Below, piece after piece: positions 12,390-61,849 of a stretch of DNA of 64,000 bases. A program made the position numbers and the translations under genes. Position 1 is the stretch's first letter. Each line of letters begins with the position of its first letter. The DNA is taken from positions 1,175,471 through 1,239,470 of the forward strand of contig JBEPZY010000001.1 of NCBI GenBank assembly GCA_041640595.1, given 5' to 3'. The notes below the pieces were generated by a model, which worked only from the letters and a program-made list of their open reading frames with translations, had not been told where the DNA came from and did not search any database. The stretch is from Gemmatales bacterium (GTDB lineage Bacteria; Planctomycetota; Planctomycetia; Gemmatales; HRBIN36).

Positions 12390-12946
12390 GTTCCCGCATG
12401 AACGCAGGCTTACCCAATGGCTCGACGTTTGACATGTCCCGATCGGCAAGCTAAGTTTCAGCGGGCGCACCGACACTCGCGGACAAAGTCAGGCTAGGCT
12501 CTGTCACGCATTCGGCAGCGTTATGTTATAACTTTATAGCCACAGGGCTGTCGTGAGGAAATCGAATTGGGGCAATCCAGGAGGCTGGGAGGCCATGCGC
12601 TACATGATCACGGATGAAATGTGGGTGGTTATCGAGGAATGTTTGGCCCAAGCGAAGATAGAAAAACGGGGCCGACCCGCAGAGATTTCCGACCGCAAGT
12701 TCCTCGAGGCCTTGCTCTCCTTGCTCTACGTGGCGCGAACGGGGATTCCCCGACGGGATTTGCCCAGGGAATTTGGGAAATGGGATGCGATTTACAACCG
12801 GTATCGCCGCTGGCTCAAAAACGGTACGCTGCAGAGGCTGTTTGAGTTGCTCACTGCCCACCCAGAGTTAGCGGCCATCAGACGCATCCTGATAGATGCC
12901 ACGAATGTGCGAGCCCATCGGTGCGCGGCAGGGGCACCGAAAAAAG

Positions 12947-13050
12947 GGTCTGCCTCCGAGCAGGGTCCGCGTGGGAGTCGGCAGTTGTAAGTGGTCGGAC
13001 AAGCGAAGTTCCGGTCTGCCTCCGAACAGGGTCTTGGTCGGAGTCGGGGT
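12947..13050. repeat. 66-bp-period duplication inside the transposase gene
   Basis: GGTCTGCCTCCGARCAGGGTC occurs at 12947 and 13013. Similarity extends ~38 nt; the remaining ~28 nt is unrelated filler. Confidence 0.8.
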
Positions 13051-13211
13051 GGATTCTCGACGAAGATGGTGCTCACTGCCCTAGATGAGAACACACCGGT
13101 GGCCGTAGAGCTGTTACCTGGTCAGGTGCATGAAGCAACGCAGGTCGAGAAGATGCTTGATGCGAGCCAAGCACGTCTTCCTCAGATTGAGGAAGCGGTG
13201 GTGGATAAGGG

Positions 13212-13368
13212 GTTTGACGGTGAGCCACAGCGGGCAGCTATGGTCGCTCTTGCATGCATTGTTGGCCCCCCTGTGCGGAGTTTGACGGTGAGCCTCAGCG
13301 GCAAGCGATGTTGTGAGTTCGCCTGCGCCTCCGGGTCGTTGTCCGCGTTTGACGGTGAGCCACAGCGG
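13212..13368. repeat. three copies of a 22-nt core at 68/67-bp spacing inside the transposase gene
   Basis: GTTTGACGGTGAGCCNCAGCGG occurs at 13212, 13280 and 13347, separated by 46- and 45-nt fillers that share only their ends. Confidence 0.8.
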
Positions 13369-13617
13369 CAAACCATGGCAAGTCGGAACATCCGGCCGGT
13401 GATTCCCTATCGAGCCAATCGGCAAAAAGGGGGGGCGACTAAACCGGAAGGCGTATGCGGAGCGTAACAAGATAGAACGGCTGATTGGCAAGTTGAAAGA
13501 GTTTCGTCGCATCGCCACACGATATGACAAGTTGAAAGAGACATTTCTTGGCATCATTCAACTGGCTCTCGCATACATTTGCCTAAAAGCTAAGTTAATC
13601 GTCAACAGAGCCTAATT

Positions 13618-26659: not shown

Positions 26660-26735
26660 AAAGTCAGCGTTGCCGCGGTTCGGCGAAAGCAGGTTATTGC
26701 GGTTTGTCCGATACAACTTCGGGAAGGGTCAGCAA
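26660..26735. repeat. solitary degenerate copy of the 71-74-bp repeat family seen at 56-60 kb
   Basis: GGCGAAAGCAGGTTATTGCGGTTTGTCCGATACAACTTCGGGAAGGGTCAGC aligns by eye with the unit junction GGCGAAAGTGCGGCTATG..TGCTGGAGTTTGTAGCG and with TGCGGTGTTTGTTCGCAATGTGACCGAGGGTCTGG. Confidence 0.35.
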
Positions 26736-36676: not shown

Positions 36677-36788
36677 CGCTTCCGTGCTTTCGCTGTAATC
36701 AAGGATGATAAGGCCTCGGGGCGGGCAAATCTCGCAGTGGGGTTAGACCACCGCTTCCGTGCTTTCGCTGTAATCGAGGATGATCAGG
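36677..36788. repeat. 75-bp direct duplication in the intergenic spacer of the LPS operon
   Basis: CGCTTCCGTGCTTTCGCTGTAATCRAGGATGATMAGG occurs at 36677 and 36752, matching at 35 of 37 positions. Confidence 0.85.
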
Positions 36789-43161: not shown

Positions 43162-43379
43162 CATCGGACGTCGAATTTCCCCCTGTCAGGTGTGCCAGTG
43201 GTGATTCGTTTCGGAGGCCAGCCACATTCTCGTCGGCTTCCTCGAGGTTTAACCTACGCGAGGATGTGCCAGGGGGCTTCGTTTCACAAGCCAGCCAAAT
43301 GACCGACGTGTGATATTTCGCTACCTTATACCGTAACTTCCTGCCCACCAAAAGTCCCTGCCCAACGGAGTCAGCAACC

Positions 43380-45988: not shown

Positions 45989-46441
45989 ATGCTTACGCGG
46001 CAGGAATTCGATGTCATTCTCGCGGACACCACCAAGCGCATCCTGGGAGATATTGATTGGCGAGAAGATGCAGACCATTCTCCGGCCCGCGAATTTCGCA
46101 TCGAGGTTAGCTCGGATAACGGATGGCCCATTTTCATCGTCGGCCGTTGGAATCCCTATGCCGGGACGTTGAGCTACGTTCTCATCCATCGCGGTGCCGG
46201 ACGCATCTACGGACTGGACCTGGGCGCTGATCATCACAATCCTACTTGCGAGCGGGTCGGCGAGAAACATAAGCACGCATGGACTGAAGAATTTCGCGAT
46301 AAGCAGGCTTACGTGCCCAGCGACATCACAGCGTCTTGGGACCAGCCCGTGGAGGTGTGGCGTCAGTTTTGCCGTCAGGCCAACATCACGCACCAGGGTC
46401 AAATGCATCCTCCCTCGGTGCAAGGGGAACTAATCCCATGA
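45989..46441 (+). CDS. hypothetical protein (150 aa) with a His-rich DHHNP..GEKHKHAW motif
   Basis: GGAAGG Shine-Dalgarno and good third-position C/G bias. Its stop overlaps the next gene's start (ATGA at 46438-46441). No domain recognised. Confidence 0.6.
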   Translation: MLTRQEFDVILADTTKRILGDIDWREDADHSPAREFRIEVSSDNGWPIFIVGRWNPYAGTLSYVLIHRGAGRIYGLDLGADHHNPTCERVGEKHKHAWTEEFRDKQAYVPSDITASWDQPVEVWRQFCRQANITHQGQMHPPSVQGELIP

Positions 46442-47214
46442 CTTGCGAAGAACTGCGTGCGCAATTGCACGCATCCGGACATCTGCTATTTGAATGCAGT
46501 CCGGCCCCACGGGAAGGGATCAGAGTCCGGACATTTTTGCTTTATCCGGACGGAGGCATCATTGATGTTTTCGTCGTGGAGCGGGATGGACAGTTAGAGG
46601 TGACCGATTTCGGCGAAGCTTTGGGCTGGCTTCGCCTGCAATCTCCGAGAGGACATCTTTCCCCCAAGCAAAAGCGTCTGATTGCTGACGTATGTCTTAC
46701 CCTGGGCGTGGAATGTTTTCGTGGCCAGCTGGTGTGCCGAGTCAAAAATAATGACGTCTCCGCGGCAGTTCTGAAGGTGGCTCAAGCAGTGCTGCGCGTG
46801 ACCGATTTGTGGTTCACCATGCGCACGCGAGTAATTGAAAATGTCGCAGACGAAGTGGCGGACTGGCTCAGCGAGAAAGGCATTGCCTTTGAACGTGGTG
46901 CCACACACGTCGGTCGTTCGGGACGTGTCTGGACCGTGGACTACCAGACGCACTTGCCTCAACGTACCTCGCTTGTTTTCCTGCTCGCTACAGGTTCGCG
47001 TGCGGCAGCCCGTCGAGTCACCGAACATGTGCTGGCCGGGTTATACGACCTCAGCCACCTCAAGGTAGTGCAGCCCCAGCTTGCGTTCGTCTCACTTTTC
47101 GACGACACCGAGGACGTCTGGCAGGAAGAGGATTTTCGACTCGTCCAGGATTTGTCCGTGGTGGCACGATGGTCGCGGCCGGACGAGTTCGAAAAGATAC
47201 TGCGGGCCGCATGA
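46438..47214 (+). CDS. hypothetical protein (258 aa), possibly DUF1828/DUF1829-like
   Basis: Translationally coupled to the upstream gene. The N-terminal C..L....G..FE......I.V......PDGG.I.V.V.E..G...VTD.G pattern recalls DUF1828. This rests on recollection only. Confidence 0.6.
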   Translation: MTCEELRAQLHASGHLLFECSPAPREGIRVRTFLLYPDGGIIDVFVVERDGQLEVTDFGEALGWLRLQSPRGHLSPKQKRLIADVCLTLGVECFRGQLVCRVKNNDVSAAVLKVAQAVLRVTDLWFTMRTRVIENVADEVADWLSEKGIAFERGATHVGRSGRVWTVDYQTHLPQRTSLVFLLATGSRAAARRVTEHVLAGLYDLSHLKVVQPQLAFVSLFDDTEDVWQEEDFRLVQDLSVVARWSRPDEFEKILRAA

Positions 47215-47620
47215 ATTGCAAACACCGCCGGCTCATTGCCAGGCAACCACCGCTCCGACCCCACAAGCAGCTCTCGGCGACACGCGAACATGAGGCTGAT
47301 TTCTGGCACAGCCGTTCAGGGGCCATATACCCCTACTTACACCACCAGCGTCAGAAAAACAGAACCAGGGTGGAATCCCGCTGGCAGCACGCCACACGTT
47401 ATCGGTGACACGCAGCTATTGTCCCTGTTCACGCTTAGTTACGGGCTTTGTTCACGATAATTTCTTTGGCAAGCCAACGAATAAACACGAGGAGCAAAGT
47501 CAAGGGCAAAACCAGCAGTGCGTTCCGAATATATTTCCTAGCTAGCCCACGGCCAGGCTTCTTTTTTCGGTGCTCAGGCGAACATCCGGAACCGAGTCGG
47601 CAAGGTGGACACCAGGCGAC

Positions 47621-48508
47621 ATGGACACCACGCTGTTAGCCGACAACACCGTCGGCAAAATCTATTTCGCGGATAACCTGGAGGTGCTCAGGACGTTTCC
47701 GGACGAATCGGTGGATTTGATCTACATCGATCCGCCGTTCAACACCGGGAAGGTACAGGAACGCATCTCCATCAAAGCGGTGAGGTCGGAAGAAGGTGAC
47801 CGGGTCGGCTTTCAGGGACGTCGCTACCAAAGCGTCGTCATCGGGAGAAAGCGTTTCGCGGATATGTTCGACGACTACCTGGGCTTCCTGGAACCGCGTC
47901 TGGTCGAAGCCTACCGCATTCTCGCGCCCCACGGATCGCTGTATTTCCATGTGGATTACCGTGAGGTGCACTATTGCAAGGTGCTGCTCGACTGCATATT
48001 TGGCCGACAGTGTTTCCTGAACGAAATCATCTGGGCCTATGACTACGGTGGGCGTCCTAAAGACAGATGGCCGGCTAAACACGACAACATTCTGCTTTAC
48101 GTGAAAAGTCCTGGTCAGCACGTGTTCAATGCAGATGCGATCGAACGCATACCGTATATGGCCCCAGGATTGGTAGGTGCGGAGAAAGCAGCCCGCGGAA
48201 AACTACCGACCGATGTCTGGTGGCACACCATCGTTCCGACCAATAGCGCTGAAAAAACGGGATACCCGACCCAGAAGCCCCTGGGCATCCTTCGCCGCAT
48301 CATTCAGGCCTCTTCTCGACCGGGTGCCGTTGTGCTCGACTTTTTTGCCGGCAGCGGAACGACCGGGATGGCTGCCCTCGAACTGGGCCGCCGCTTTATT
48401 CTCGTGGACAACAACCCCGAAGCCCTGGCAGTGATGGCTCGCCGCTTCGACGGCATCAAAGGAATCACATGGTCCGGCTTCGACCCTGCTGCATCGCGGA
48501 GAATTTGA
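47621..48508 (+). CDS. beta-class N6-adenine/N4-cytosine DNA methyltransferase (N6_N4_Mtase family)
   Basis: Motif IV IDPPFNTG precedes motif I VLDFFAGSGTTGMAA, which is the beta-class order. Also YPTQKPLGILRRII. The start is taken at the ATG at 47621. Confidence 0.9.
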   Translation: MDTTLLADNTVGKIYFADNLEVLRTFPDESVDLIYIDPPFNTGKVQERISIKAVRSEEGDRVGFQGRRYQSVVIGRKRFADMFDDYLGFLEPRLVEAYRILAPHGSLYFHVDYREVHYCKVLLDCIFGRQCFLNEIIWAYDYGGRPKDRWPAKHDNILLYVKSPGQHVFNADAIERIPYMAPGLVGAEKAARGKLPTDVWWHTIVPTNSAEKTGYPTQKPLGILRRIIQASSRPGAVVLDFFAGSGTTGMAALELGRRFILVDNNPEALAVMARRFDGIKGITWSGFDPAASRRI

Positions 48509-48720
48509 ATCCGCAATTTCGATCAAAGGAATCGACTGGTTCGGTTTCGACCCGCTAGCGATTGCGACAGCGTTTCAATCCCACCGATCGAAGGAACCGC
48601 ATGGTCCGGCTTCACCCGCAATGGTCGTTTTGAACGAATCCGTTACCGCGGCACCTAAGGAATATGCTTCGGCTTCGACCGAACCTTTACCGGAAACACG
48701 TCTGGCAGCGGCAAGCGGCG
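48455..48720. repeat. about four diverged tandem units of 63-67 bp, starting inside the methyltransferase 3' end
   Basis: AAGGAAT..GGYTTCGACC cores occur at 48459, 48526, 48591 and 48657 (3 x 66 = 198). Inter-core segments share TTTSAATCC. Confidence 0.75.
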
Positions 48721-48945
48721 GTGCAGTTCTACGGCGACGAGGCGATGAAGCTGCTCCGCGACGCGGTGGCTAAGGGATTCAAGGATGCCGCTCGCATGAA
48801 GAAGGACAGCGCCTTCGACGTGATCTGATTGGAAACAGTCACGGCAACGTCCAGCGCCCGCATGCAAAAGGACAGCGACCTCGACCCGCTGCGGCAACGT
48901 TCCGACTTCCAGCAATTGCTGCAGGAGTTGCTCGGCCCCCGGTGA
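48683..48945 (+). pseudogene. C-terminal fragment of a TPR/kinase-associated protein, with an internal 66-bp duplication
   Basis: ..QFYGDEAMKLLRDAVAKGFKDAARMKKDSAFDVI* is followed by MQKDSDLDPLRQRSDFQQLLQELL*. CGCATGMARAAGGACAGCG occurs at 48793 and 48859. Confidence 0.5.
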
Positions 48946-49406
48946 ATCGGTCAATAACCAGTTTCCCCTGGAAAAGTGCGATGACCGCCCAATGGTGGAC
49001 CACGACGGCCCGAGTCCGCAAGCAGCGGACTGGTGGCCACGTGTCACATGGATTTTTGGCAGGTCGGTTGGCAAATTGGGACACGCCACAACGCCTTCTG
49101 CAACACACGTGAAGGGGAGCGTTATTGTGGCCAGAAGAAAGTCGGTGCCGGAGAGGTTTTCGACAAGAATGGCGGCATCGCCCCTCGCAGTCGGGAACAA
49201 TAGCGGCATGGCCTGCCACAATGGGGGCCGATATTGGTCCCGCAATCAGGATCGCTGCCGAAGCCCCATCGGAGCCTGGTGCTGGCTTGCTAATTCAATC
49301 CAGCCGTCGCTCGATTAGCACCGTCGAGGAATTATTGGACCTTGGTGCGGGCAGCCGGTCGCGGCTCGTCCTCGCAAGCGCAGCAAGCCCCAAAACGCCT
49401 CGTGCA

Positions 49407-49503
49407 CGGTTTACTGGCGAGCAGTTTGTACCTACCCCTACATCGGTTTCAAACTCTGGTTCTGATCCCGCTCGGTTTACTGGCGAGCAGTTTATGCCTA
49501 CCC
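49407..49503. repeat. 66-bp-period duplication (31-nt core + 35-nt filler)
   Basis: CGGTTTACTGGCGAGCAGTTTRTRCCTACCC occurs at 49407 and 49473. Confidence 0.85.
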
Positions 49504-53534: not shown

Positions 53535-56144
53535 TCAGTTGGCGAAGGGGACGAGGCGATAAGAAAACTGCACGTCATCGGCCGGGGTCAGGCTGTCGGC
53601 CAGCTGAATGAAGAGCGTTCCCTGGGCGGCGCGGTGCACCGGTCGCGGTTTGTCGAACTCAATCCGCACGCCGAAACCGCCACGATCGATCAGCACCCCT
53701 CGCGCCATCACCGGCTTGTCGGCAAGTGGCTCGCCCGCCTGACCGTCGTCGCCCAGTACCGTAACGGTGGTCGGCAGCGGTTTCTGTCCTGGCCGGGCTT
53801 TACCCTGCGGCAAAAACGGAATGAGTTCGTACACCTCGCGGACCTTGCCACGGAACGGATTTTTCAGCCACAGCGCCAGTAGCTCTTTATCCTGCGTCTG
53901 CTGCAATTGTACCTGGCAGCGGATGCCGTCCGGTTCGAAGATGTACACCCGCCGGCAGCGTAACGGTGTTCCGCGGATGTCACCGGAGCTTTCCACCCGT
54001 TGTCCGACAAGGCGGGCATCGAAGTGTTCGCTATCCCCGGCGACAAACGGCGAACCGTCGGCCTGAATCCCGGCCAGGGTGTGCAGGCGGAAACCGCGCC
54101 ATTGGGAAACGTCCATATTCTCGCCATAAGCCCCATTGAGCACCGAAGCCAGGACCAGTCCCCTACCCGGCACATGCAACTGGCAGATCATGCCGCCACC
54201 GTAACCGGATTGCCCCAGGTGGCTGTGCGTTTCCCATTTCGGCGACAACCGACCGTGATAGGTCAGGACGTAATAGTTTTTCCGGCGAGCGGCGAACCAC
54301 TCGTTGGCCCCGTTGACCGACTCGGTGAAATCCGGCCCCGGCAAACCTTTCCAGGCGAAAGGCCCTTCGGTCTCGATTTTCCAGTGGGGATAGTAGTGGG
54401 TACGGGAACTCCACGGCCCAGCAGGAACGTTTTCGTCGGCCAACGTGTAGCTGAACCATCGCCGCACGCCATCGTACACCTTTTGCAACCGCGGATCGGG
54501 CAGGTCAGCCAGGATTGCTTGCCACGTTGTCAGGATGTAAGAGCCGTAGTGATACGCATAGGCGAACCCTTCCTGCACCGGTCCGGAAGGCCCGACGCCG
54601 ACTCGTTCGCCCCAGCCACCACGGGTAAAACGCTCCCAGTAGGTGTCGAACAATTCCTTCTGCAGCGGATCGCCGGTCGCTTCGTAACAATAACGCAGCG
54701 CCGCCAGCACCTGGGCGTATGAGTTGCCGTTGACCCGTTCCCAACTGCGGCAAAACGCCAGCCGATCACCAGCCACCAGAAACGCCTCGCGGACGATCGC
54801 TTTCACCTCGTCCGGTGCATCGCTGTGTTGCAGGATGTGCCACGCCGGCCGCCAGTATTGCCACGCATAGTTGCTGAACTCGTAAGCGAGATTGGCAAAC
54901 GGCCCACCCATCGCGACGGCGACGTGATCGTTCGGCCCGATGGCTCGCAGCCCGGCGAACAGTTCCCGCAACGCCACATTCAACGCCGCACGGTTTTTGT
55001 GTGCGGGATAATGATGCATAATCCGATCGCACAGGGGCGGCTGGCCGTACGGACCGTTCACCGGCAAAAAGTTTGGTCGCTGCGGAAGCACAGGCAACTT
55101 CTGTCCCGGCGGATAGCCCGCCACCGGTGTCGCCAGTTCCCCTTTTTCGTTCCGCACCTCGAAATCTTCCGGCCGCAGCTTCTTCAGCCAGTCGTGGAAG
55201 CGAACCTGGAAGCCGTGCCAGAATACCTCGCCGTCGTGATAAATGGCACCGTTGCGGATCGCCCGAGCCGTCGCTTCATCAGCTGCCAGCACCGCCGGCA
55301 CTGCCGGTTCGCCCCGATGGTGTACGTTGGCATTTCGCTGCAACCGCAACTTCACCAGGAGCAGGAAATCATTATCCCCCGGCGATACTTCCAGCCGCAG
55401 CACCTGATCCCACAGTTGTTCCGGCTGGGCAAAATCCACCGCCGTCTTCCAGAAAATCGGTCCCGGCTCGTTGGCCACCAGTTCCTTGCCGTCGGGAGTA
55501 TAGATCGCCACACGCCGTTGTCGCGGCCGGTCGTATTCCGCGATCGCCACATACAGCCCGACGCTGCCCCGCGGCACATACAAATACGCTCGCCGCCATT
55601 GCTCGCCGTGCCCGTGCAGCCAATCCGGATGGCCCGCCATTGCCGTCGGCAGCTCCGGTTCGATCTTGAACGACACTACATGATCCGTCGCCCCGACGAT
55701 CACCACCCGATACACGCCCGCCTGTCCCCCACGCACTGCAAAGCGAAAGTCGCGCTTCGGCACCGCCGCCAGCCGGGCCGGGTCCATGACCGCACTCCAG
55801 CGAAGCAATGCCGCTCCCTTTTCCTGAGCGTAAGCGTGATACCACGCTTCATGGTCCCAGCCGCCCATCGGCAACTGAAACAGCGGCTTGGTAATACCGT
55901 CATCGGGCAGCACTTGCCGCACCACGCACCGCCCCTGCGGATCATACACCTTCACCAGCACCTCACGCGGGCCGAACTCATACAGGTTCAGGTCGCGGAC
56001 ACCCAGATGCACCGTGAAATCCTTACCCGCCTCGTTGACCACGAAGACGGTAATCCCGTCATGCAACCTATGCGTGGATTGTGCCTGCAACAGCGGCGCG
56101 CACCCTATCAGCATCAGAGCCACCAGTACCGCGTTCCTTTTCAT
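53535..56144 (-). CDS. large secreted hypothetical protein (869 aa)
   Basis: Signal peptide MKRNAVLVALMLIGCAPLLQAQ and balanced composition. The antisense 445-aa ORF is R/H/P-rich and implausible. No domain recognised. Confidence 0.7.
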   Translation of the reverse strand: MKRNAVLVALMLIGCAPLLQAQSTHRLHDGITVFVVNEAGKDFTVHLGVRDLNLYEFGPREVLVKVYDPQGRCVVRQVLPDDGITKPLFQLPMGGWDHEAWYHAYAQEKGAALLRWSAVMDPARLAAVPKRDFRFAVRGGQAGVYRVVIVGATDHVVSFKIEPELPTAMAGHPDWLHGHGEQWRRAYLYVPRGSVGLYVAIAEYDRPRQRRVAIYTPDGKELVANEPGPIFWKTAVDFAQPEQLWDQVLRLEVSPGDNDFLLLVKLRLQRNANVHHRGEPAVPAVLAADEATARAIRNGAIYHDGEVFWHGFQVRFHDWLKKLRPEDFEVRNEKGELATPVAGYPPGQKLPVLPQRPNFLPVNGPYGQPPLCDRIMHHYPAHKNRAALNVALRELFAGLRAIGPNDHVAVAMGGPFANLAYEFSNYAWQYWRPAWHILQHSDAPDEVKAIVREAFLVAGDRLAFCRSWERVNGNSYAQVLAALRYCYEATGDPLQKELFDTYWERFTRGGWGERVGVGPSGPVQEGFAYAYHYGSYILTTWQAILADLPDPRLQKVYDGVRRWFSYTLADENVPAGPWSSRTHYYPHWKIETEGPFAWKGLPGPDFTESVNGANEWFAARRKNYYVLTYHGRLSPKWETHSHLGQSGYGGGMICQLHVPGRGLVLASVLNGAYGENMDVSQWRGFRLHTLAGIQADGSPFVAGDSEHFDARLVGQRVESSGDIRGTPLRCRRVYIFEPDGIRCQVQLQQTQDKELLALWLKNPFRGKVREVYELIPFLPQGKARPGQKPLPTTVTVLGDDGQAGEPLADKPVMARGVLIDRGGFGVRIEFDKPRPVHRAAQGTLFIQLADSLTPADDVQFSYRLVPFAN

Positions 56145-56171
56145 GCGAGCGCTCCTTGTTGACCTCCAGCG

Positions 56172-56540
56172 TCCGCAGTCTTAGCCGCGAGTGCTCCAAC
56201 TATTCCACCTGAGATGGTGATCGAAATGCTAAAGGGGTAATGTGCTTGTAGCGTTAGCCGTAAGCGACCCAAGTATCCCACTCAGGTGGCGAAAGTGCGG
56301 CTATGTATTCTGCTGGAGTTTGTAGCGTTAGCCGCCAGTGCCCCTAGCATCCCAGTCGGATTGCAGCAGTGCGGCAATGTGCCCTGTTTGGGTTTGTAGC
56401 GTTAGCCGTAAGCGACCCAAGTATCCCACTCAGGTGGCGAAAGTGCGGCTATGTATTCTGCTGGAGTTTGTAGCATGAGCCGCCAGCGATCTAAGTATCT
56501 CAGACCTGGGCCGGATTGTCTGGTGCTCGCTGACACTTTC
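56172..56540. repeat. tandem array, about 5 units of 74 bp
   Basis: TTGTAGCGTTAGCCG starts at 56246, 56320 and 56394, and the variant TTGTAGCATGAGCCG at 56468, an exact 74-bp period. Units 56246-56319 and 56394-56467 are identical; the others are ~70% similar. A degenerate unit lies upstream. Confidence 0.9.
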
Positions 56541-56638
56541 GCCGTCAGCGTGTATCGCAACGGTGCCGCTACCCCGTCATTATGCGAACCCCAGCCCACG
56601 ATGTACACACACCTCTGTTCGTTGACCGCTGATTTGAC
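56537..56638. repeat. ~100-bp direct repeat, copy 1 (left flank of the small membrane-protein gene)
   Basis: TTTCGCCGTCAGCG..CCGCTACCCCGTCATTATGCGAAC..GATGTACACACACCTCTGTTCGTTGACCGCTGAT is ~85% identical to 57265-57429 excluding the latter's insert. Confidence 0.85.
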
Positions 56639-56873
56639 AGCGAGCTTGTTGCCCTGCTAGCCCTAGAGGGGCACATCCGCCTCTCGTTAACATTGACTCA
56701 TTCCAAGGCATGCCTTCTAGAAACGAGAGCAACTACGCCCTGGCAGACGCAGCCTTAGCGTGGCATGAGTGCTGGATTCTAGCCGGTGGCACAGCTCGCC
56801 TATAAAAATTCTTGATAAACACTCGCACAAAAGCTCGGCGAACGAAGCTGATACGGCGCAATGGGAGTCAGCC

Positions 56874-57227
56874 ATGTCCAAACGTTTTACACTTAGAAAG
56901 GTGCTGTTAGGTATAGCTAGTCTCACTGCTTTGCTGATCGGGGCTCCCATCTGGCCTATCTTTTCAATCGTAGCAGCAATGGACCGGCATTTCGATCTGA
57001 CCACAATTATCGTGCTAATGACCGTGTGGAGTGTTGCATCGCTGGTGACTTTTGGCGTGGCCATGTACTTTATCTACCTGGTATACCACAATGAAGCGCT
57101 ACAAGCAGAACAAAAGGTGATTTGGACCATGCTTTTGATATTTTTCTGGCCGGTGATGCCTGTGATATATTGGTACAACTATATTTGGAAGGAACCGCAA
57201 GCCGACCGGAGCCCACAAGGAGGCTAG
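56874..57227 (+). CDS. small hypothetical membrane protein (117 aa, 3-4 TM)
   Basis: GGGAG Shine-Dalgarno before the ATG at 56874. Hydrophobic spans include LLGIASLTALLIGAPIWPIFSIVAA, TTIIVLMTVWSVASLVTFGVAMYFIYLV and VIWTMLLIFFWPVMPVIYWY. Confidence 0.6.
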   Translation: MSKRFTLRKVLLGIASLTALLIGAPIWPIFSIVAAMDRHFDLTTIIVLMTVWSVASLVTFGVAMYFIYLVYHNEALQAEQKVIWTMLLIFFWPVMPVIYWYNYIWKEPQADRSPQGG

Positions 57228-57264
57228 CTCGTCACTACTAAATGCAGGATTCTGAACCGTCGCC

Positions 57265-57429
57265 TTTCCGCCGTCAGCGTATGTCGCAGCGTTCCGCTAC
57301 CCCGTCATTATGCGAACTCGTCAAGGTTAGCTATAGACCATCCAGAGACGCACCCAATTACCCTGCTGCGTCATTATGCGAGCCCAGCCCAGGATGTACA
57401 CACACCTCCGTCCTTGACCGCTGATCGAC
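57265..57429. repeat. ~100-bp direct repeat, copy 2, carrying an internal 66-bp-period duplication
   Basis: Homologous to 56537-56638. GTCATTATGCGA occurs at 57304 and 57370. Confidence 0.85.
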
Positions 57430-57710
57430 TTCAATGACCGCTCCTTATAGACAGAAGGAATTACACTGTGCTATCTTTCATTAAGTAGCAACTGCTACCC
57501 TAAGCGCGAACAGTACTGTCAAGCTACCAACAAACCAAATCACAATCCCCTTCTTAGCAACACCGGCCTAACATTACTGATATGCCTAATAAGACGGGGC
57601 CTGAGCATCTGGAATCCATCGGCGCGAAGATGTTCCCCCTTGGTCAGGTGAACCACGCCTGGATATGATCTCGTCTACTTCCTACCCACACGGGAGAGGA
57701 CATAAGTCCT

Positions 57711-57938
57711 ATGAAGAGGTCCATCCGCAATTTCACTACGTACGATCGCGGTAATGCCGATGAGCTATTTGTAAGCGTCAGCACCGAAAATGGCCTCATA
57801 GCGCTTGTGCTGTCGCTGAAAGCTGACGGTGATATTACCGTGTTCCTGGACACCCCTGCTGCTAGAGAGCTAGCAAACGCACTCATTGAGGCAGCTAACC
57901 AGTCCGAATTAGAATACCCGCCCCACGAAACTACGTAG
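57711..57938 (+). CDS. small hypothetical protein (75 aa)
   Basis: GGGAGAGGA Shine-Dalgarno upstream and plausible globular composition. No domain recognised. Confidence 0.45.
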   Translation: MKRSIRNFTTYDRGNADELFVSVSTENGLIALVLSLKADGDITVFLDTPAARELANALIEAANQSELEYPPHETT

Positions 57939-58391
57939 TTGTTGTTGCTGATGGGGGTCGGGGCGCGTTAGGACTGGGCTTTCGACCAGTACCTGCGGAA
58001 ACCGATCGAGGAGTGGATCCGCATGTGCAAGTGGCGTTCGCAGCCTGTGTTCAAAACACAGAGTGCATTCAATTTTGGGATAGCTTTGCGGCTGGACGGG
58101 AATCGCAGTGGCGATCAGCGCCTTTCCAGCCAGTGCACCTCAACTTCAGATGAGTCGTAAAATATTAGTGGGGTCGCGCCTTTACACCGCTGCAACTACA
58201 AGAATCATTCACATTCGGCCTCAGCATGGGCGAGCCGGTTTGAATTGATTATCATACACTTCGAGGGCATAAGATACCCCGTACTGACTCGGATGTGTTG
58301 GAGAGTAAACTTCATTCTTCTGGAGACAACCTAACAAACTAGTCACGGAAGCTTTTCGTTAGACAATTAACGAGTACCAGAGGAGGTTCAA

Positions 58392-58829
58392 ATGACACCA
58401 GAAGAGGTAATATCGAGGGCGGAAAATCAGCGAGAACTAGAAGATATACCCACTTATGATGCCTTCTTCCACCCGTCTCATATCGAATTTTTCGCAGAGC
58501 TTTTCCAGCTGAGGATTCCTATCTGGATTCCGGATTATGACCTCGCCAGGTTGAAGCGTAAGATATGGTTCATTAAGGTGATGGAGGTACCGACCAGGCG
58601 TCATGATCTACTTGTTTACCACGTCCAGAGGTATTTCGTCGAGCGGGAGGCTGAGCTAGACCGCCATGTGCTTGGAAGGTTAATCTACTCCCCTGAGAAG
58701 CGCTGCCTATCGCTATTTTCGAATGACGGTCTGAAGGTCGAAATGGAAGTGTCGGCATTATGCGTTGAGCTGATAAAAAGACAAGAAGTGCGGTGGGATT
58801 GGCGTTGGCTTGATATCATCTGTTGTTAA
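58392..58829 (+). CDS. hypothetical protein (145 aa), in a lower-GC segment
   Basis: Strong AGGAGG Shine-Dalgarno 6 nt upstream. Local GC is visibly lower than the surroundings. No domain recognised. Confidence 0.55.
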   Translation: MTPEEVISRAENQRELEDIPTYDAFFHPSHIEFFAELFQLRIPIWIPDYDLARLKRKIWFIKVMEVPTRRHDLLVYHVQRYFVEREAELDRHVLGRLIYSPEKRCLSLFSNDGLKVEMEVSALCVELIKRQEVRWDWRWLDIICC

Positions 58830-59169
58830 GATAATGGGACTTACGTGTGCTAGGCTTTTGGTACCCTTGGGCAACAGCGGGTATTCACTCTTGGGGGCGT
58901 AACTCTTCGCGTTTCGCCCTACGCGTTGCTGCGACCCACAACCTAGCCACCCCTCCGCGAAGACCCACTCTCGTTCATCACCGGCGGTGACCGCGATAGG
59001 GGATGTAAACTAGCCATGCCCCTTTCTCGGTATGAGAGAAACTAAGCAGACCGCCGGGCATGTAAGTTGCGAAAACGTGTTCGTGCCTCTACTTATACAT
59101 GCACAGAAAATCAGCGCATCGCTGAACAGAGAAATTGTGGCACTATACTTGAGAATTCACTTCCCGGTA

Positions 59170-60020
59170 CAATGCAAGTTGGCACACCGTTTGGCTTCCA
59201 ATGTTAGCCGCGAAGGAGACTTGCCTTTGGCCTTGAGTTGCAATGCAAGTTGGCGCTCCGTAGGCCACCGAACGTGTGGCTCTTTGTCCGCGGCTCCAGT
59301 TATAGGCGCAAAGGAAACCAGAGCCTCGTCGGGCCGGAAAAGTTGCCAGAAACTATTGTCGGCTGTCATTCCTGGTTATTAATGGCTCCAATTGCTGGTT
59401 CGATGCGAAGCTAATAGATCGCCGGGCAGGTAGGCTGATGTGCGTTGTTCGCAAGCGTCTTGATGCGAATCGGACAGCTAAGCTTGCAGGCAGACTGCTG
59501 TCCTCTGTCCGCAACATAACCGAACATGTGACTAAGCTCTTAGGCGCAAGGACATTCTAGCCGGACTGCTGTCGTTTGTCGCAACGTGACTGAGGGTCTG
59601 GTTAGTGTTTAGGCCCAATCTACATTCCCGGCGGGCTGCGGTGTTTGTTCGCAATGTGACCGAGGGTCTGGATAGGCCTATAGGCCCAATCTGCATTCCG
59701 GGCGGGCTGCGGTGTTTGTTCGCAATGTGACCGAGGGTCTGGATAGGCCTATAGACCCAATCTACATTCCCGGCGGGCTCTGGTGTTTGTTCGCAATGTG
59801 ACCGAGGGTCTGGATAGGCCTATAGGCCCAATCTGCATTCTGGGCGGGCTGCTGTCGTTTGTTTGCTACGTGACCGAGCGTCTGGATAGGCTTTTAGACC
59901 CAATCTACATTCCGGGCGGGCTGCTGTCGTTTGTTTGCTACGTGACCGAGCGTCTGGGTAGGCTTTTAGACCCAATCTACATTCCCGGCGGGTCCGGTGT
60001 TTGTTCGCATCGCCACTTAT
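59170..60020. repeat. tandem array, about 12 units of 69-72 bp
   Basis: Units start at 59572, 59641, 59712, 59783, 59854, 59926 and 59997 (GTGTTTGTTCGCAATGTGACCGAGGGTCTGGATAGGCCTATAGGCCCAATCTGCATTCCGGGCGGGCTGCG). The central units are ~90% or more identical, and units become progressively degenerate toward 59170. Confidence 0.9.
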
Positions 60021-60047
60021 AGGTGGGACAAAGCTTACAGTGCTGGA

Positions 60048-60215
60048 CAGGTATAGCGGTGCGGGGAACGGTGAGCAAACTCCTCTAATTCGGCAGAGTC
60101 TTCTTTATAAGTGGAACCGGGAAGGTATAGCTGTGCGGAACCTTGATAGGACGCCGTATCGGTCTCGTGCTCGCGAAAGTAACCGGGAATGTAAAGCTGT
60201 GCGAAAGCGCTAAGC
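60048..60215. repeat. three degenerate units with 73/67-bp spacing
   Basis: GGAMMGGKAWRGTAWAGCKGTGCGRRR cores have GTATAG/GTAAAG at 60051, 60124 and 60191. Confidence 0.6.
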
Positions 60216-60490
60216 GAACTCGGTTGGGTGGCGGTGGGCGACTCCGCCGACCCGAACCGAGTCGCGTCCGGCCTGCGTTAGCGAAACCCCGAAAGTCTTG
60301 TGATGCGGATCGCTCAGCTTCGCATGGAAATAGCTAGCTGCCTGCCGTCGGCCACAGTGGGCGGAGCGGGATGGCAGTCGGAAAAGCGGGTTGGACTCAC
60401 TCCTCACCAGAGAAATACGCAGAACCCGAGGAGAAATTAGGTAGCCAGCAGTTAAAAAACCGTCAGTCCATCCCCGAATTCCGCCGGGGC

Positions 60491-60519
60491 TTGACGGAAC
60501 CCAGGTGAGTCGGTAAAAT
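60491..60519 (+). promoter_or_regulatory. sigma-70-like promoter candidate
   Basis: TTGACG (60491-60496), then 17 nt, then TAAAAT (60514-60519). Confidence 0.4.
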
Positions 60520-60520
60520 T

Positions 60521-60539
60521 GGTATAACATGGTAATACC
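60521..60539. promoter_or_regulatory. imperfect 8-3-8 palindrome (possible Zur/Fur-family operator)
   Basis: GGTATAAC-ATG-GTAATACC lies immediately after the -10 element. It contains TATAACAT, reminiscent of enterobacterial Zur boxes. Confidence 0.3.
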
Positions 60540-60814
60540 GACGGTGAGCAACTTGGTTCAGATGGCTTCGTGCCTCTCGGACGGCCAGATGGTCAGGGAA
60601 GGCATTCCGAATGGCTTACAGGGCCGAAGGAGGCCCTTGCTGGCCAAAATAAACAAGCCATTGCCCAGCCATGGTGAAGGAACGCGCTGGTGCAGAACAA
60701 CCGGGAGCCGCAGAGCCTGTTCCACACAAGCTAGGAAGCAAGTCCTTTCTTGTCAATAACTTATGGCGAAAATCGCGGCGTATTTCCTGAAAATTTAGCA
60801 AATGGAGGTGGAAA

Positions 60815-61849
60815 ATGCGTGTCGGCAGAAAACCGGCAGACTCAAAGTCTCCGCAAGTGCAAAAATGGTGGCTGCGAATCCCGGCCAAATGGCTCGCGGT
60901 CGGTTTGGTCGTGTTGTTAGGCATGACGGCTGGTGGATGCGTGAGGCGACTGGAAGGCGATCCCTGGGGTGGGACGTCGAAACTTCGCGTGCTGGCGACG
61001 ATCGTGCCCTGGCACTGTCTGGCCGCCAGCATCGCGGAACCGGAGGCTGATGTCCGATGTTTGTGCATAACCAACGGTCCGCACGAATTTCAGCCGACGG
61101 CCGAAGAAGCGAGGCTGCTCAACAGTGCCGACCTGGTAATTGCGAATGGTCTGGGGCTGGAAGGGTTCCTGGTGCCGATGCTGCGTGGCAGTGGGCGGAA
61201 AGACTTGACAGTGTTGCGGGTGGCGGAAGAATTACCGCGTCGCGGCGGCAAGTTGATCGAGGTACCGGGCTATGAACATCACGGGCACGTGCATGGTCCT
61301 GGTAACGATCCCCATGTCTGGCTGGGTTTCCAGGAAGCGGAGTTGGCGGCCGAGATGATTACCGAAGCGCTGAGCCAGGCCCGTCCAGAGCATAAGGAAG
61401 CATTCCAGCAACGCTGCGAACAGGTCAAGCAACGACTGAATGCACTGCGTAAACAAGCTGAACCGCTGAGTCGCACGCAGGGCGCCCTTCTAACCGCTCA
61501 TGACGCGTTTCGCTATTTCGGACGCTCGGTGTTCGGAGCGGACTACGAACAGCGGCTGATTGCCGTGCGCGGTTTGCACGGAGAAGAACTTGCCGCGGCC
61601 GACTTTGATAAACTGGTAATCGAGTGCCGCCGCAAACGTGTCCGTGCTTTCGCGATTGAACCGGGGTCTTCTCGCGTGATCCTGGATCGCATCCAGGAAA
61701 GTCTTGGAGAAAAACTGCCTGTCCTCGAACTCGACCCGATAGAAACGGCCGATCCAGACCCGCAACGCCGCTTCTATGTCTCCCCCGACTGGTATTTCAA
61801 GGTCATGGAAAAGAACCTGCAACAACTCCTTGGGGTATTTCAGCCATGA
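60815..61849 (+). CDS. znuA: metal (Zn/Mn) ABC transporter substrate-binding lipoprotein, TroA/ZnuA family
   Basis: GGAGGTGG Shine-Dalgarno, lipobox LGMTAGGC, the His-rich loop YEHHGHVHGPGNDPHVW typical of ZnuA, and a downstream ZnuC-like ATPase. Confidence 0.85.
   Translation: MRVGRKPADSKSPQVQKWWLRIPAKWLAVGLVVLLGMTAGGCVRRLEGDPWGGTSKLRVLATIVPWHCLAASIAEPEADVRCLCITNGPHEFQPTAEEARLLNSADLVIANGLGLEGFLVPMLRGSGRKDLTVLRVAEELPRRGGKLIEVPGYEHHGHVHGPGNDPHVWLGFQEAELAAEMITEALSQARPEHKEAFQQRCEQVKQRLNALRKQAEPLSRTQGALLTAHDAFRYFGRSVFGADYEQRLIAVRGLHGEELAAADFDKLVIECRRKRVRAFAIEPGSSRVILDRIQESLGEKLPVLELDPIETADPDPQRRFYVSPDWYFKVMEKNLQQLLGVFQP

Follow-up and report, generated by a model that had tools for sequence, protein, structure and literature searches.

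The tandem repeat arrays A and B look like the largest cases of genome-wide duplications of 65–76 bp that resemble CRISPR-style spacer insertion scars. They lie near one end of the window, the whole 64-kb stretch of DNA that was analysed, from a hot-spring Gemmatales bacterium (Planctomycetota) representing one species-level lineage. The chances of our three-layer explanation, taken as a whole, are nearly even.

A strain-variable islet with a decaying Rhs-type module

We are highly confident that the region is a strain-variable islet, which is flanked by a conserved 869-aa gene and znuA and has a decaying Rhs-type module as its core. Its features are:

53535-56144, minus strand: 869-aa gene, start codon 28 bp from array A
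56537..56638, no strand: direct repeat R1, left copy of a segment of ~100–165 bp flanking the 117-aa gene
56874..57227, plus strand: gene of a 117-aa small membrane protein, between R1 and R2
57265..57429, no strand: direct repeat R2, which holds R-S-R locus T7
57658..58990, plus strand: decayed Rhs-type toxin/immunity module, assigned by DNA homology to Rhs loci
57711..57938, plus strand: 75-aa ORF, likely immunity protein
57946..58391, plus strand: 141/143-aa partner gene, here a pseudogene without a start codon and with three or more frameshifts (tblastx frames, translations)
58392..58829, plus strand: 145-aa ORF in the Rhs module
58952..58990, plus strand: Rhs core-end remnant encoding ...REDPLSF...
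57716..59345, no strand: strain-variable 1.63-kb segment, missing from contigs L020 and L021

As an earlier note on this DNA had pointed out, the island is lower in GC (52.2% vs 56.3% for the window). The comparison of strains proposed there revealed both array-length polymorphism, in line with a satellite-like behaviour, and the presence or absence of the enclosed ORFs: contigs of other strains (97–98% identical) carry fewer units, or are without the 117-aa gene or the segment 57716-59345. In relatives, islet and arrays are both absent from the neighbourhood of the 869-aa orthologue (74–85% protein identity). Mobile DNA found in the islet comprises an IS element (L010) and a methylase-containing gene block (L032/L033).

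The direct repeats bracketing the 117-aa gene were recovered as first described (repeat families D5, D7, and D8). In this strain R1 is without a 66-bp S+R sub-unit, and L004 has 66 bp extra at this place. The 117-aa gene, which has an alternative GTG start at 56769 giving 152 aa, shows a pS of 0.04–0.05 vs a pN of 0.007–0.011. It is missing in L010, L020, L021, and L034, where a single hybrid R copy remains. Segments of the islet are lost by two routes, namely recombination between direct repeats for the 117-aa gene and illegitimate deletion for 57716-59345. The deletion junction of the latter in L020 and L021 reads ATGAA-ccc-GAAACTAT, and no repeat was found at it. The segment diverges between strains by only ~0.9% vs 3–4% for its flanks.

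The Rhs-type module opens with the 3′ tip of a toxin gene, followed by the 75-aa gene, the 143-aa gene with its frameshifts, the 145-aa gene, and finally the Rhs-core remnant. Its DNA is about 80% identical to L031 685-1815 and 79% identical to L023 9542-10594; an RHS_repeat match (E=4.5e-14) lies at L023 5497-6153. The product of the 75-aa ORF is likely to be an immunity protein, judging from its gene context: a homologue (83% identical) follows, at a distance of 11 bp, an Rhs C-terminal toxin ORF with the motif NPVSYVDPTGL. The DNA of this ORF is 100% identical across nine strain contigs. The homologue of the 145-aa ORF (78%) is always located 28 bp behind another ORF, within Rhs/YD-shell orphan-module arrays. 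Module boundaries of L023 and L024 show the 35-bp core-end motif as well (L024 6388, 9390, and 10560; cf. L025 1464-1600). The three enclosed ORFs described in the earlier note do exist and have no Pfam domain. They are not orphans: an Rhs toxin/immunity module known elsewhere includes the 75-aa and 145-aa genes, and the 117-aa protein has 138 homologous cluster representatives.

The module resembles the orphan Rhs toxin/immunity modules known from polymorphic toxin systems (Zhang et al. 2012, PMC3482391; Poole et al. 2011, PMC3150448) in its small genes behind an Rhs C-terminal toxin ORF with a DPxGL motif, core-fragment remnants at module boundaries, strain-variable gene content, lower GC, and pseudogenised genes; some strains are without the Rhs-type module. 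It differs from them in that the window retains neither the Rhs gene nor the toxin and in that the module is isolated between housekeeping genes. Since no toxin is left and the module stands alone, it is predicted to confer at most orphan immunity.

Independent, non-coding array families

The following repeats were found in the islet:

56172..56540, no strand: array A, five units of 74 bp with an exact period (TRF, repeat finding, nhmmer)
59170..59261, no strand: weak direct-repeat pair of 21–28 nt with a spacing of 71 bp
59485..60016, no strand: array B, about seven units of 70–72 bp and a terminal 38-nt half unit
60041..60206, no strand: family C, three 26-nt repeats at 60041, 60115, and 60181

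The tandem arrays are non-coding, were made locally, and form independent families rather than copies of a mobile element or an RNA element; our confidence in this is good. The exact period and the approximately five units previously seen in array A were obtained with both TRF (56246-56499) and nhmmer (five units, 56174-56540), and the units at 56246 and 56394 are identical at 74 of 74 positions. Two decayed edge units enclose inner units of alternating subtypes (a-b-a); two to five copies are present in other strains. The division of the array A unit into an R and an S part is weak (17% vs 39% divergence in one independent comparison).

Array B was located by TRF at 59562-60009 (6.3 copies, 88% matches), and about eight units from 59485 to 60016 are significant with nhmmer. 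The period of 71/72 bp was thereby confirmed, and the count of 12 units from 59170 onwards had to be reduced; no periodicity was detected in 59262-59400. Array B has three unit subtypes and a copy number of 3–8 across strains. It had been stated that no frame stays open across the units. A 79-aa ORF (59783-60022) does run through the 72-bp units, and as its frame shifts in the 71-bp units, array B is still non-coding. The three looser units reported near 60048-60215 correspond to family C (family D6 of the repeat search), the repeats of which are 69–88% identical and enclose unrelated inserts of 48 nt and 40 nt (periods 74 and 66).

The view that the units form one dispersed, REP-like family was not borne out. 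Arrays A, B, and C and a further array, D, from a related Rhs locus are mutually unrelated. The similarity between A and B is at chance level, with 39 of 300 shuffles scoring equally well, and the nhmmer profiles of the two gave no cross-matches. The supposed solitary copy at 26660-26735 is noise (no nhmmer match at E<=10; z<=1.6). The B junction pattern occurs in the JGI metagenomes at this locus only, and the single match of the B-core pattern in GTDB genomes is due to chance. The palindrome ATAGGCCTAT, attributed to most young units, is confined to one unit subtype.

The units of A, B, and D are homologous end to end, with higher-order patterns of 148 and 142–144 bp. The arrays keep unchanged positions in all strains and are no more conserved than their flanks. 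Their copy-number changes between strains are most simply explained by unequal crossing-over or slippage. In accordance with the earlier view that the units match no known non-coding RNA, Rfam gave no match even at E<=1 and no tRNA was found. The suggested covariation analysis of the aligned units detected no covariation. A stable fold was not found either (fold z-scores −0.04 to −2; array B consensus −3 kcal/mol), and no single-strand DNA hairpin beyond shuffles was seen in A, B, or the R1 segment (z −0.04 to −1.4).

A common spacing and the R-S-R loci

Close direct repeats in the window gave 26 matches at 12 loci, all with a lag of 65–75 or double this value, the sole exception being a lag of 55 within locus T3. 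Shuffled windows gave 0–1 matches vs the 26 observed, and two 50-kb stretches of E. coli, analysed as a control, gave lags of 119, 180, and 192. The lags in contigs of relatives (L016, L023, L024, L025, and L032) fall in the 64–76 band. The small loci have the structure R-S-R, in which a native R of 24–39 bp is duplicated around an unrelated S of 31–48 bp:

12947..13377, no strand: loci T1 (R35, S31) and T2 (three R34 copies, S34 and S33), within a transposase pseudogene of the IS5 family (12553-13560)
36677..36788, no strand: locus T3 (R37, S38, period 75), in the spacer that separates two LPS-core genes
43192..43300, no strand: locus T8 (R36, S37, period 73), intergenic
48455..49503, no strand: loci T4 (four R32 copies, beginning within a DNA methylase gene at its 3′ end; periods 67, 65, and ~68), T5 (R31, S35), and T6 (R34, S32)
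R 57292-57315, S 57316-57357, R 57358-57381, no strand: locus T7 (period 66), within R2

The T4–T6 stretch is identical in the independent assembly L001. R is ordinary native sequence, such as transposase motifs, the Rhs YRARWYD motif, or a methylase C-terminus, and the S insert disrupts the reading frame of this sequence. The R copies are 72–95% identical at T1–T8 and 69–88% identical at C. At these nine loci the identity of S to both flanks is at chance level, as is that to other S segments, T4 excepted. Neither a copy of S elsewhere on either strand of the DNA examined nor a shared S motif was found, and a search of IMG/VR with five S segments yielded no protospacer. The total of R+S (65–76) is held more tightly than the length of R (24–39). 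The same layout is seen in array D, which has a 74-bp unit and reads exactly (R37-S37)n-R, with the 37-nt R at both ends and alternating with a 37-nt S (7.5, 14.5, and 12.5 copies by TRF on three contigs of one sample). B, like D, ends in a half unit (38 nt in B, the 37-nt R in D).

Possible origin of the arrays

We tentatively propose that the units are founded by duplication of a repeat-sized target together with insertion of a spacer-sized segment, as in off-target integration by Cas1-Cas2, and are then amplified by crossing-over. In the founding event, which would set the unit length, unrelated spacer-sized DNA (S, 31–38 bp) would be inserted and the native repeat-sized target (R, 31–39 bp) duplicated on each side, giving R-S-R with a period of 65–76 bp. 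This geometry is that of the products of off-target integration by CRISPR Cas1-Cas2 ('neo-CRISPR'). Unequal crossing-over between the two R copies would then amplify the R-S unit to (R-S)n-R. This would explain why all units of an array are homologous, why unrelated arrays have a common period, and why arrays end in a half unit. The arrays themselves are probably inert and, as by-products, make the islet more plastic. As every unit of A and B carries a homologous S half, it is only their geometry that points to an R-S-R origin of these two arrays.

According to Nivala et al. (2018, Nat Microbiol; summarised in bioRxiv 10.1101/148544), spacers integrated off-target have been shown to start new arrays in E. 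coli, and two further species offer circumstantial evidence. The loci agree with neo-CRISPR in the repeat-length non-CRISPR target duplicated around a spacer-length unrelated insert. They also agree in having successive units at a single site, as seen at T2, T4, C, and the L010 IS copy, and in periods of 65–68 and 71–76 bp, which are within the range of natural CRISPR arrays. They differ in the variable R length, in the absence of cas genes and of a canonical array from the window, in a locus density far above that reported, and in large arrays that amplify one S instead of gaining new spacers. A Cas1-Cas2 ruler should fix R, whereas the apparent R varies here from 24 to 39 nt, and 12 loci per 64 kb would correspond to roughly a thousand per genome, far above any off-target integration reported. 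No cas1, cas2, other cas gene, or CRISPR array was found in the 64-kb window, and the R segments have no repeat-like or leader-like motif in common. The earlier statement that the arrays, being homologous over the entire unit, are not CRISPR holds for a canonical array and has to be qualified for the geometry, with its repeat-sized and spacer-sized halves and half-unit ends. Canonical arrays share the 65–76 bp period, these two halves, and, in the mini-arrays T2 and C, unrelated spacers. Here, however, the 'repeat' differs per locus and is ordinary native sequence of 69–95% identity, the spacers of A, B, and D are all alike, and a leader and a nearby cas gene are absent.

The arrays might instead be neutral minisatellites (VNTRs), which arose by slippage duplications and unequal crossing-over in dispensable DNA; the common period would then reflect a non-CRISPR physical constraint, for example the ~65-nt SSB wrapping mode or a nucleoid protein, or be in part coincidence. 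The homology of the A, B, and D units throughout, with their higher-order patterns, the copy-number variation between strains, and the lack of structure or conservation above the flanks fit this explanation, and unique long-unit non-coding satellites are known in prokaryotes, usually without special significance (PMC6749651). Like bacterial VNTRs (e.g. mycobacterial MIRU-VNTR; PMC6749651), the arrays consist of 40–100 bp units, head to tail, intergenic, and strain-variable in number, with young central units, decayed edge units, and no obvious function. MIRUs, however, are one dispersed family at dozens of loci, whereas each array here is its own family, with a common period without common sequence and half-unit ends. 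We consider this origin unlikely, as simple duplication predicts an S resembling the flanks and whole unit numbers, whereas nine loci have an S related to neither flank, and D and B close with a half unit. Furthermore, the spacings at all 12 loci lie within a band of 11 bp, where the E. coli controls have none. A ruler-based insertion process other than Cas1-Cas2 would account for the better conservation of R+S than of R alone, for a locus number very high for off-target CRISPR integration, and for the absence of cas genes from the window. It might, for example, integrate fixed-length DNA or cDNA pieces (~65–76 nt), partly homologous to the target; alternatively, a nuclease or transposase not yet characterised might make ~35-bp staggered cuts and the gap be filled with foreign DNA. 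No enzyme apart from the CRISPR integrase is known to duplicate a target of ~30–40 bp while inserting ~30–40 bp. Both a reverse transcriptase and an unusual transposase are absent from the window, and such a process appears rather improbable.

A role as functional cis-elements, in which the copy number of binding sites or promoters sets the expression of flanking genes (array A for the 869-aa gene, arrays B and C for znuABC), is very improbable. Array A does begin 28 bp upstream of the 869-aa start codon, array positions are constant in all strains, the units contain short palindromes, and the island has nine promoter-like matches vs 3.6 expected. The palindromes differ between unit subtypes, however, and none of the promoter-like sites is repeated in each unit; 869-aa orthologues in relatives have short, array-free upstream regions, znuA is 800 bp from array B, and like repeats also occur in pseudogenes and gene 3′ ends. 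The earlier ideas of a tandem small-RNA locus or of scaffolds capturing cassettes were assessed as an integron-like or CALIN array, with the units as attC-like sites or sRNA genes. The small same-strand ORFs in lower-GC DNA, one of them variably present between direct repeats, would suit this. Integron attC/CALINs likewise have short repeats interleaved with small promoterless-looking same-strand ORFs in a variable region. This reading is already largely refuted and retains hardly any probability: hairpins of A, B, and R1 are no more stable than shuffles, the window has no integrase, the junction of the second variable segment is without a repeat, Rfam is empty, and array B, with its consensus fold of −3 kcal/mol, shows no covariation. 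The units also differ from attC sites in having no imperfect-palindrome hairpin, no correctly arranged R''/R' core pair, and no IntI, and they are tandem, with no cassettes in between.

Tandem arrays of the islet

Tandem Repeats Finder detected exactly two sizeable arrays in the 64-kb window, both in the islet (~56172-60300) between the gene of an 869-aa protein and znuA:

Array A, 56246-56499: period 74, 3.4 copies, 74% matches
Array B, 59562-60009: period 71, 6.3 copies, 88% matches

With nhmmer unit profiles, array A is resolved into five units (56174-56540), in agreement with the about five 74-bp units of the earlier note, and the units at 56246 and 56394 are indeed identical. Array B is likewise real and comprises about seven units plus a 38-nt partial one (59485-60016). 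Its supposed extension to 59170 did not hold, as similarity is marginal left of 59485 and 59170-59261 is a separate weak pair. The three looser units to its right were recovered as 26-nt repeats at 60041, 60115 and 60181 (family C). The 100-bp segment at 56537-56638 (R1) was found again at 57265-57429, which places the gene of a 117-aa membrane protein between direct repeats, and the lower GC content of the island is borne out (52.2% versus 56.3% for the window). No comparable periodicity appeared in shuffled sequence in the autocorrelation scan, and the core observation therefore stands. Arrays A and B had also been regarded as one family with a solitary copy at 26660-26735. This copy is undetectable, the A and B profiles matching the window only inside the arrays; the profiles give no cross-hits, and 39 of 300 shuffles score as well as A against B.

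The reading as a tandem small-RNA locus finds no support in Rfam, in single- and two-unit folds or in alignment folds. Rfam 15 yields no family at the gathering threshold in the window and none at E ≤ 1 in 56000-60900, and ARAGORN gives no tRNA match. Single units and unit pairs, as RNA or DNA, fold no better than shuffles (z −0.04 to −2.0). When 19 distinct B units and 10 A units, collected across all strains, are aligned, their consensus folds reach −3.1 and −12.1 kcal/mol, respectively, each with one covarying pair. The recombination-scaffold or integron reading is likewise unsupported by the DNA folds and by the lack of an integrase family among the window proteins. Folded as DNA on either strand, A, B and R1 show no hairpin signal (z −0.04 to −1.44), the order GTTAGCC...GGCTA is, by reading the sequence, wrong for attC, and Pfam reveals no integrase, cas or reverse-transcriptase gene among the ~45 window proteins. 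The palindrome ATAGGCCTAT, which the earlier note placed in most young units, is restricted to one B subtype; not being common to the subtypes, it speaks against an array of binding sites. A promoter array was rejected too: a promoter/terminator scan shows mild promoter-like enrichment, but no site is repeated once per unit. A REP-like dispersed family finds no second locus in the window, and B patterns find no further locus in collections. The collection scans (GTDB, JGI) used patterns of array B; the B junction pattern returned the same locus in two more JGI metagenome strains plus two chance matches, and the B-core pattern returned one chance match, in a Spongiibacteraceae MAG, in the GTDB genomes, among which the source genome is not included. 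The small-RNA, attC/integron, REP-family and binding-site-array readings are unsupported. Because defining features of CRISPR, integron attC, REP/MIRU and Rfam families were tested and not found, the arrays are placed outside all of them.

The arrays themselves are of a known kind, the non-coding minisatellites of bacteria (PMC6749651): like minisatellites or VNTRs, they consist of head-to-tail non-coding units of 10-100 bp whose copy number is polymorphic between strains. Nothing indicates a function of their own; they are not conserved beyond their flanks, and unit number varies. Repeats of the array type sit where insertions are tolerated, in intergenic DNA, gene 3′ ends and pseudogenes. 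Most likely, what the arrays contribute is homology through which parts of the islet are deleted or rearranged, as with the 117-aa gene.

Genomic setting and variation between strains

The islet has housekeeping neighbours, the gene order being dnaK, pheA, the 869-aa gene, island, znuA/znuC, cinA and asd. The gene bordering it on the left is:

53535-56144, minus strand: 869-aa protein with a signal peptide and no Pfam domain

This secreted protein has homologues across Gemmatales and Planctomycetota (201 at E ≤ 1e-20, to ~45% identity), the named ones all annotated 'hypothetical protein'; its nearest named relatives come from hot-spring MAGs ('bacterium HR36', 'Gemmatales bacterium'). In relatives with 74-85% protein identity, the 869-aa gene has different neighbours, a short upstream spacer and no arrays. 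These genomes offer no orthologous intergenic region for comparison. It follows that the islet is confined to this species-level lineage. On its znuA side, ~300 bp upstream of the gene and between it and family C, the best regional sigma-70-like promoter match lies at 60491-60519 (TTGACG, 17-nt spacer, TAAAAT; 10 of 12 positions). A DUF1828 protein gene, with an N6/N4 DNA methylase gene after it, occupies 46336-48508, a block that may be a defence or restriction-modification-like module. DUF1828 is also paired with DUF6978 close to the 869-aa homologue in contigs L016 and L017.

Exact-protein look-ups plus one metagenome scan yielded about 20 further contigs of the locus, all drawn from other samples and 97-98% identical. 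The 75-aa protein and protein P0264 returned strain contigs in the exact look-ups; the 145-aa and 117-aa proteins gave no match. Two Logan contigs match the window at 100% identity and break off within arrays A and B. Five units of array A are present in the window, L032 and L034, three in L004, L020 and L021, and two in L010; array B has eight in the window, six in L032, L033 and L035, about five in L004, L021 and L034, and three in L020. Array-length polymorphism is thereby supported, at 2-5 units for A and 3-8 for B, in short-read assemblies that may collapse repeats.

The presence or absence of the enclosed ORFs varies as well, the 117-aa gene and the segment 57716-59345 each being missing in some strains. 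The 117-aa gene is absent from L010, L020, L021 and L034; each of these retains a single hybrid of the two flanking repeats, a sign that the gene was deleted by recombination between them. In L020 and L021, 57716-59345 is missing too. The junction, ATGAA-ccc-GAAACTAT, keeps 58 bp of the left end of the module and has no repeat, so this deletion is illegitimate. Where the 1.63-kb segment is present, it is ~0.9% diverged between the window and L004, as against 3-4% in the flanks, and this low divergence points to recent exchange between strains. In the deletion strains, the 75-aa gene keeps its ribosome-binding region and start codon, now joined to array-B-proximal DNA (L021 2125-2373); the resulting 82-aa ORF runs into old B units and is probably meaningless. 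Larger changes are found on the left side. An IS5-family element (DUF4096 ORF, minus strand) adjoins array A in L010 (1-700), inserted at CTAAAGGGGTAATGTG in the first unit. In L032 (1-2750) and L033 (1-2760), the 869-aa gene has largely given way to an HTH gene, an N6/N4 DNA methylase gene and a 304-aa gene; homology to the window restarts 75 bp inside the 869-aa gene, which is called only as a 46-aa stub. The islet is a hot spot of gain and loss.

A decayed Rhs module in the islet

None of the island proteins has a Pfam family, in agreement with the earlier note, which saw no recognisable domains. They are not orphans: the 75-aa and 145-aa genes have homologues in Rhs loci, and the 117-aa protein is a member of a broad small-membrane-protein family with 138 cluster representatives, its gene showing pS > pN. 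A 78%-identical homologue of the 145-aa protein is found in related loci (L023-L030) among arrays of Rhs/YD-shell fragments and small ORFs, always 28 bp after another ORF. The DNA at 57946-58986 is 79% identical to the 143-aa gene, the 145-aa gene and ~150 bp downstream in these loci, and the 143-aa gene in the window carries at least three frameshifts. The 75-aa protein has an 83% homologue (82 aa) in L031, which begins 11 bp past the stop of a toxin ORF; this ORF contains the Rhs core-end motif NPVSYVDPTGL, after which comes a C-terminal domain of ~220 aa. The predicted toxin ORF and the 75-aa homologue stand in the classic toxin-immunity order, and a 141-aa gene and the 145-aa gene come next in L031.

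A 35-bp motif at 58952-58986 (...REDPLSF...), which belongs to the Rhs core end, recurs at module boundaries in L023 and L024 with 86-91% identity; RHS_repeat is matched in L023 at E=4.5e-14. The homology of the 75-, 143- and 145-aa genes and the core-end motif identify the central part of the island as a decayed Rhs orphan module. Rhs orphan toxin/immunity modules are a known class (PMC3482391, PMC3150448). Two features of such modules are seen here, namely homology to genes that come directly after an Rhs C-terminal toxin ORF with the PxxxxDPxGL core end, and core (YD-repeat) sequence at the boundary. The 75-aa and 145-aa genes are intact and almost invariant between strains, and from their context they are at most putative orphan immunity genes; neither their products nor the Rhs C-terminal toxin have a Pfam or PDB sequence match.

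The related Rhs loci contain a third array, at the edge of the Rhs orphan-module array, with the following copies, all from one metagenome sample:

Array D, L023 11135-11688: 74-bp period, non-coding, 7.5 copies
Array D, L024 12281-13353: 74-bp period, non-coding, 14.5 copies
Array D, L025 5819-6739: 74-bp period, non-coding, 12.5 copies

Array D is unrelated in sequence to A, B and C. A coding array is also found in L023 (14581-15486; 72-bp period, 12.6 copies, 85% identical), which encodes the 24-residue leucine-rich repeats of a 541-aa ORF and is unrelated in sequence to A, B and D. Derivation of the arrays from these coding repeats or from one another was rejected, the similarity being at chance.

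A common spacing of close direct repeats

In a search of the window for direct repeats at a distance of up to 110, all 12 families found were spaced 65-75 bp. Autocorrelation over lags of 26-200, requiring 18 or more of 22 positions to match, gave 26 matches at 12 loci, with lags of 66-75 or their doubles; the sole exception, 55, lies inside one locus. The density is about one locus per 5 kb (12 in 64 kb). Two 50-kb stretches of E. coli K-12, used as controls, gave three matches, at lags 119, 180 and 192, and shuffled windows gave 0-1. In relatives, the lags were 76 (L016), 64, 65 and 74 (L023), 66, 74 and 76 (L024), 69, 71, 71 and 74 (L025) and 73 (L032). What is new here is this lineage-wide 65-76-bp ruler together with the anatomy of the loci. 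The small loci of the window, T1-T8, and family C are bipartite, with a segment R in two to four copies (72-95% identical) and an insert S in between.

Dimensions of the R-S-R loci
T1: R 35 nt; S 31 nt; period 66 bp
T2: R 34 nt; S 34, 33 nt; period 68, 67 bp
T3 (36677-36788): R 37 nt; S 38 nt; period 75 bp
T4 (48455-48685): R 32 nt; S 35, 33, 36 nt; period 67, 65, 68 bp
T5 (48789-48885): R 31 nt; S 35 nt; period 66 bp
T6 (49404-49503): R 34 nt; S 32 nt; period 66 bp
T7: R 24 nt; S 42 nt; period 66 bp
T8 (43192-43300): R 36 nt; S 37 nt; period 73 bp
Family C: R 26 nt; S 48, 40 nt; period 74, 66 bp
L016: R 39 nt; S 37 nt; period 76 bp
Array D: R 37 nt; S 37 nt; period 74 bp

R measures 31-39 nt in nine of the 11 loci, and most S measure 31-38 nt. 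The identity of S is at chance with the upstream flank and the downstream flank and, T4 excepted, with other S; in T4, S1 and S2 are related (z=3.5). No other copy of S was found on either strand in the window or the related loci, no motif is shared among S beyond shuffles, as a transposon footprint would be, and an IMG/VR protospacer search with five inserts as short 22-24-mers gave no match, an uninformative result. T3, T8, T4, T5 and T6 lie in intergenic DNA, at the 3′ end of the DNA methylase gene and in the pseudogene debris separating that gene from dnaK.

R is native coding sequence in T1, T2, T4, T5 and L025. The first two split a pseudogene:

12553-13560: IS5-family transposase pseudogene, DUF4096 + DDE_Tnp_1

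In both, R copies conserved transposase motifs. T1 stands directly 3′ of an A_AAA_AAG slippery heptamer, and in T2 the FDGEPQR-encoding segment is present in triplicate. In L010, another copy of this IS holds three R and two further unrelated S segments. T4 begins in the C-terminus of the DNA methylase and T5 lies in a TPR-like tail; at L025 1400, R duplicates the Rhs motif YRARWYD. In each coding case S breaks the native reading frame, and therefore S and one R were added as a block. Array D has the form (R37-S37)n-R, with R at both ends alternating with one S family, and its last R provides the end of a pseudouridine synthase gene, namely ~10 codons and the stop codon. Array B also finishes on a partial unit, of 38 nt.

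Origin of the loci and comparison with CRISPR

Cas1-Cas2 attacks a CRISPR repeat at its two borders, one on each strand, and the repeat is doubled when the gaps are repaired. A ~31-39-bp target duplication around a ~31-38-bp insert is the product of CRISPR spacer integration; no other integrase or transposase is known to make target duplications of that size. The loci show what an off-target Cas1-Cas2 product would, a native target of repeat length duplicated around an insert of spacer length that is unrelated to the flanks. They depart from established CRISPR arrays in that R differs at all 12 loci, is native and has copies only 72-95% identical. S segments are unrelated, as unique spacers are, in T2, C and the L010 IS copy, and homologous in A, B and D. 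Integration at non-CRISPR sites that founds new arrays has been shown in E. coli, with circumstantial natural cases (Nivala et al. 2018, as summarised in bioRxiv 10.1101/148544).

We propose that each locus would have been founded by a spacer-type insertion, giving R-S-R, and that unequal crossing-over between R copies would then have amplified the unit. Founding insertion with amplification would explain why unrelated arrays have a common period, why arrays end on half-units and why the S halves are homologous throughout the large arrays; T4, with its related S1 and S2, would be an intermediate state. For arrays A and B, we infer an R-S origin solely from geometry. The two period classes, 65-68 and 71-76, could correspond to two adaptation modules. 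That an integrase of the CRISPR type made the founding insertions is a tentative reading, with a chance somewhat short of even. Against Cas1-Cas2 stand the lack of a cas gene, leader or CRISPR array in the 64-kb window, where Pfam finds no Cas family among the ~45 proteins, R lengths that vary beyond what a molecular ruler should permit, R segments without a common motif, the extraordinary density of 12 loci per 64 kb, and the five inserts that found no counterpart in IMG/VR. No usable CRISPR parameters for Gemmataceae were found in the literature. A ruler-based mechanism of a kind not yet described is held to be improbable. Plain slippage minisatellites, with the length constraint left unexplained, are considered unlikely, if less so than a mechanism of a new kind.

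By themselves, the arrays are ordinary minisatellites in a decaying toxin/immunity islet and at most strain markers. The wider pattern would carry more weight, with its strict 65-76-bp spacing of every close direct repeat, small R-S-R loci with foreign inserts and unrelated arrays of equal period. The origin of new arrays has so far been studied mainly by over-expression experiments in E. coli. If Cas1-Cas2 is responsible, the loci would give off-target spacer integration its first dense record from nature. They would be a new natural variant, of unusual density, of something known from experiments, and would show how non-CRISPR sequence can give rise to CRISPR-like arrays and bacterial satellites. 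If it is not, a DNA insertion mechanism with a length ruler, not yet known, would be implied. It is possible, if not quite an even chance, that ruler-based insertion in Gemmatales, by a promiscuous CRISPR integrase or an undescribed mechanism, scatters R-S-R scars in dispensable DNA. Some scars would then amplify to satellites, and the lineage would be a natural fossil record of the birth of CRISPR-like arrays.
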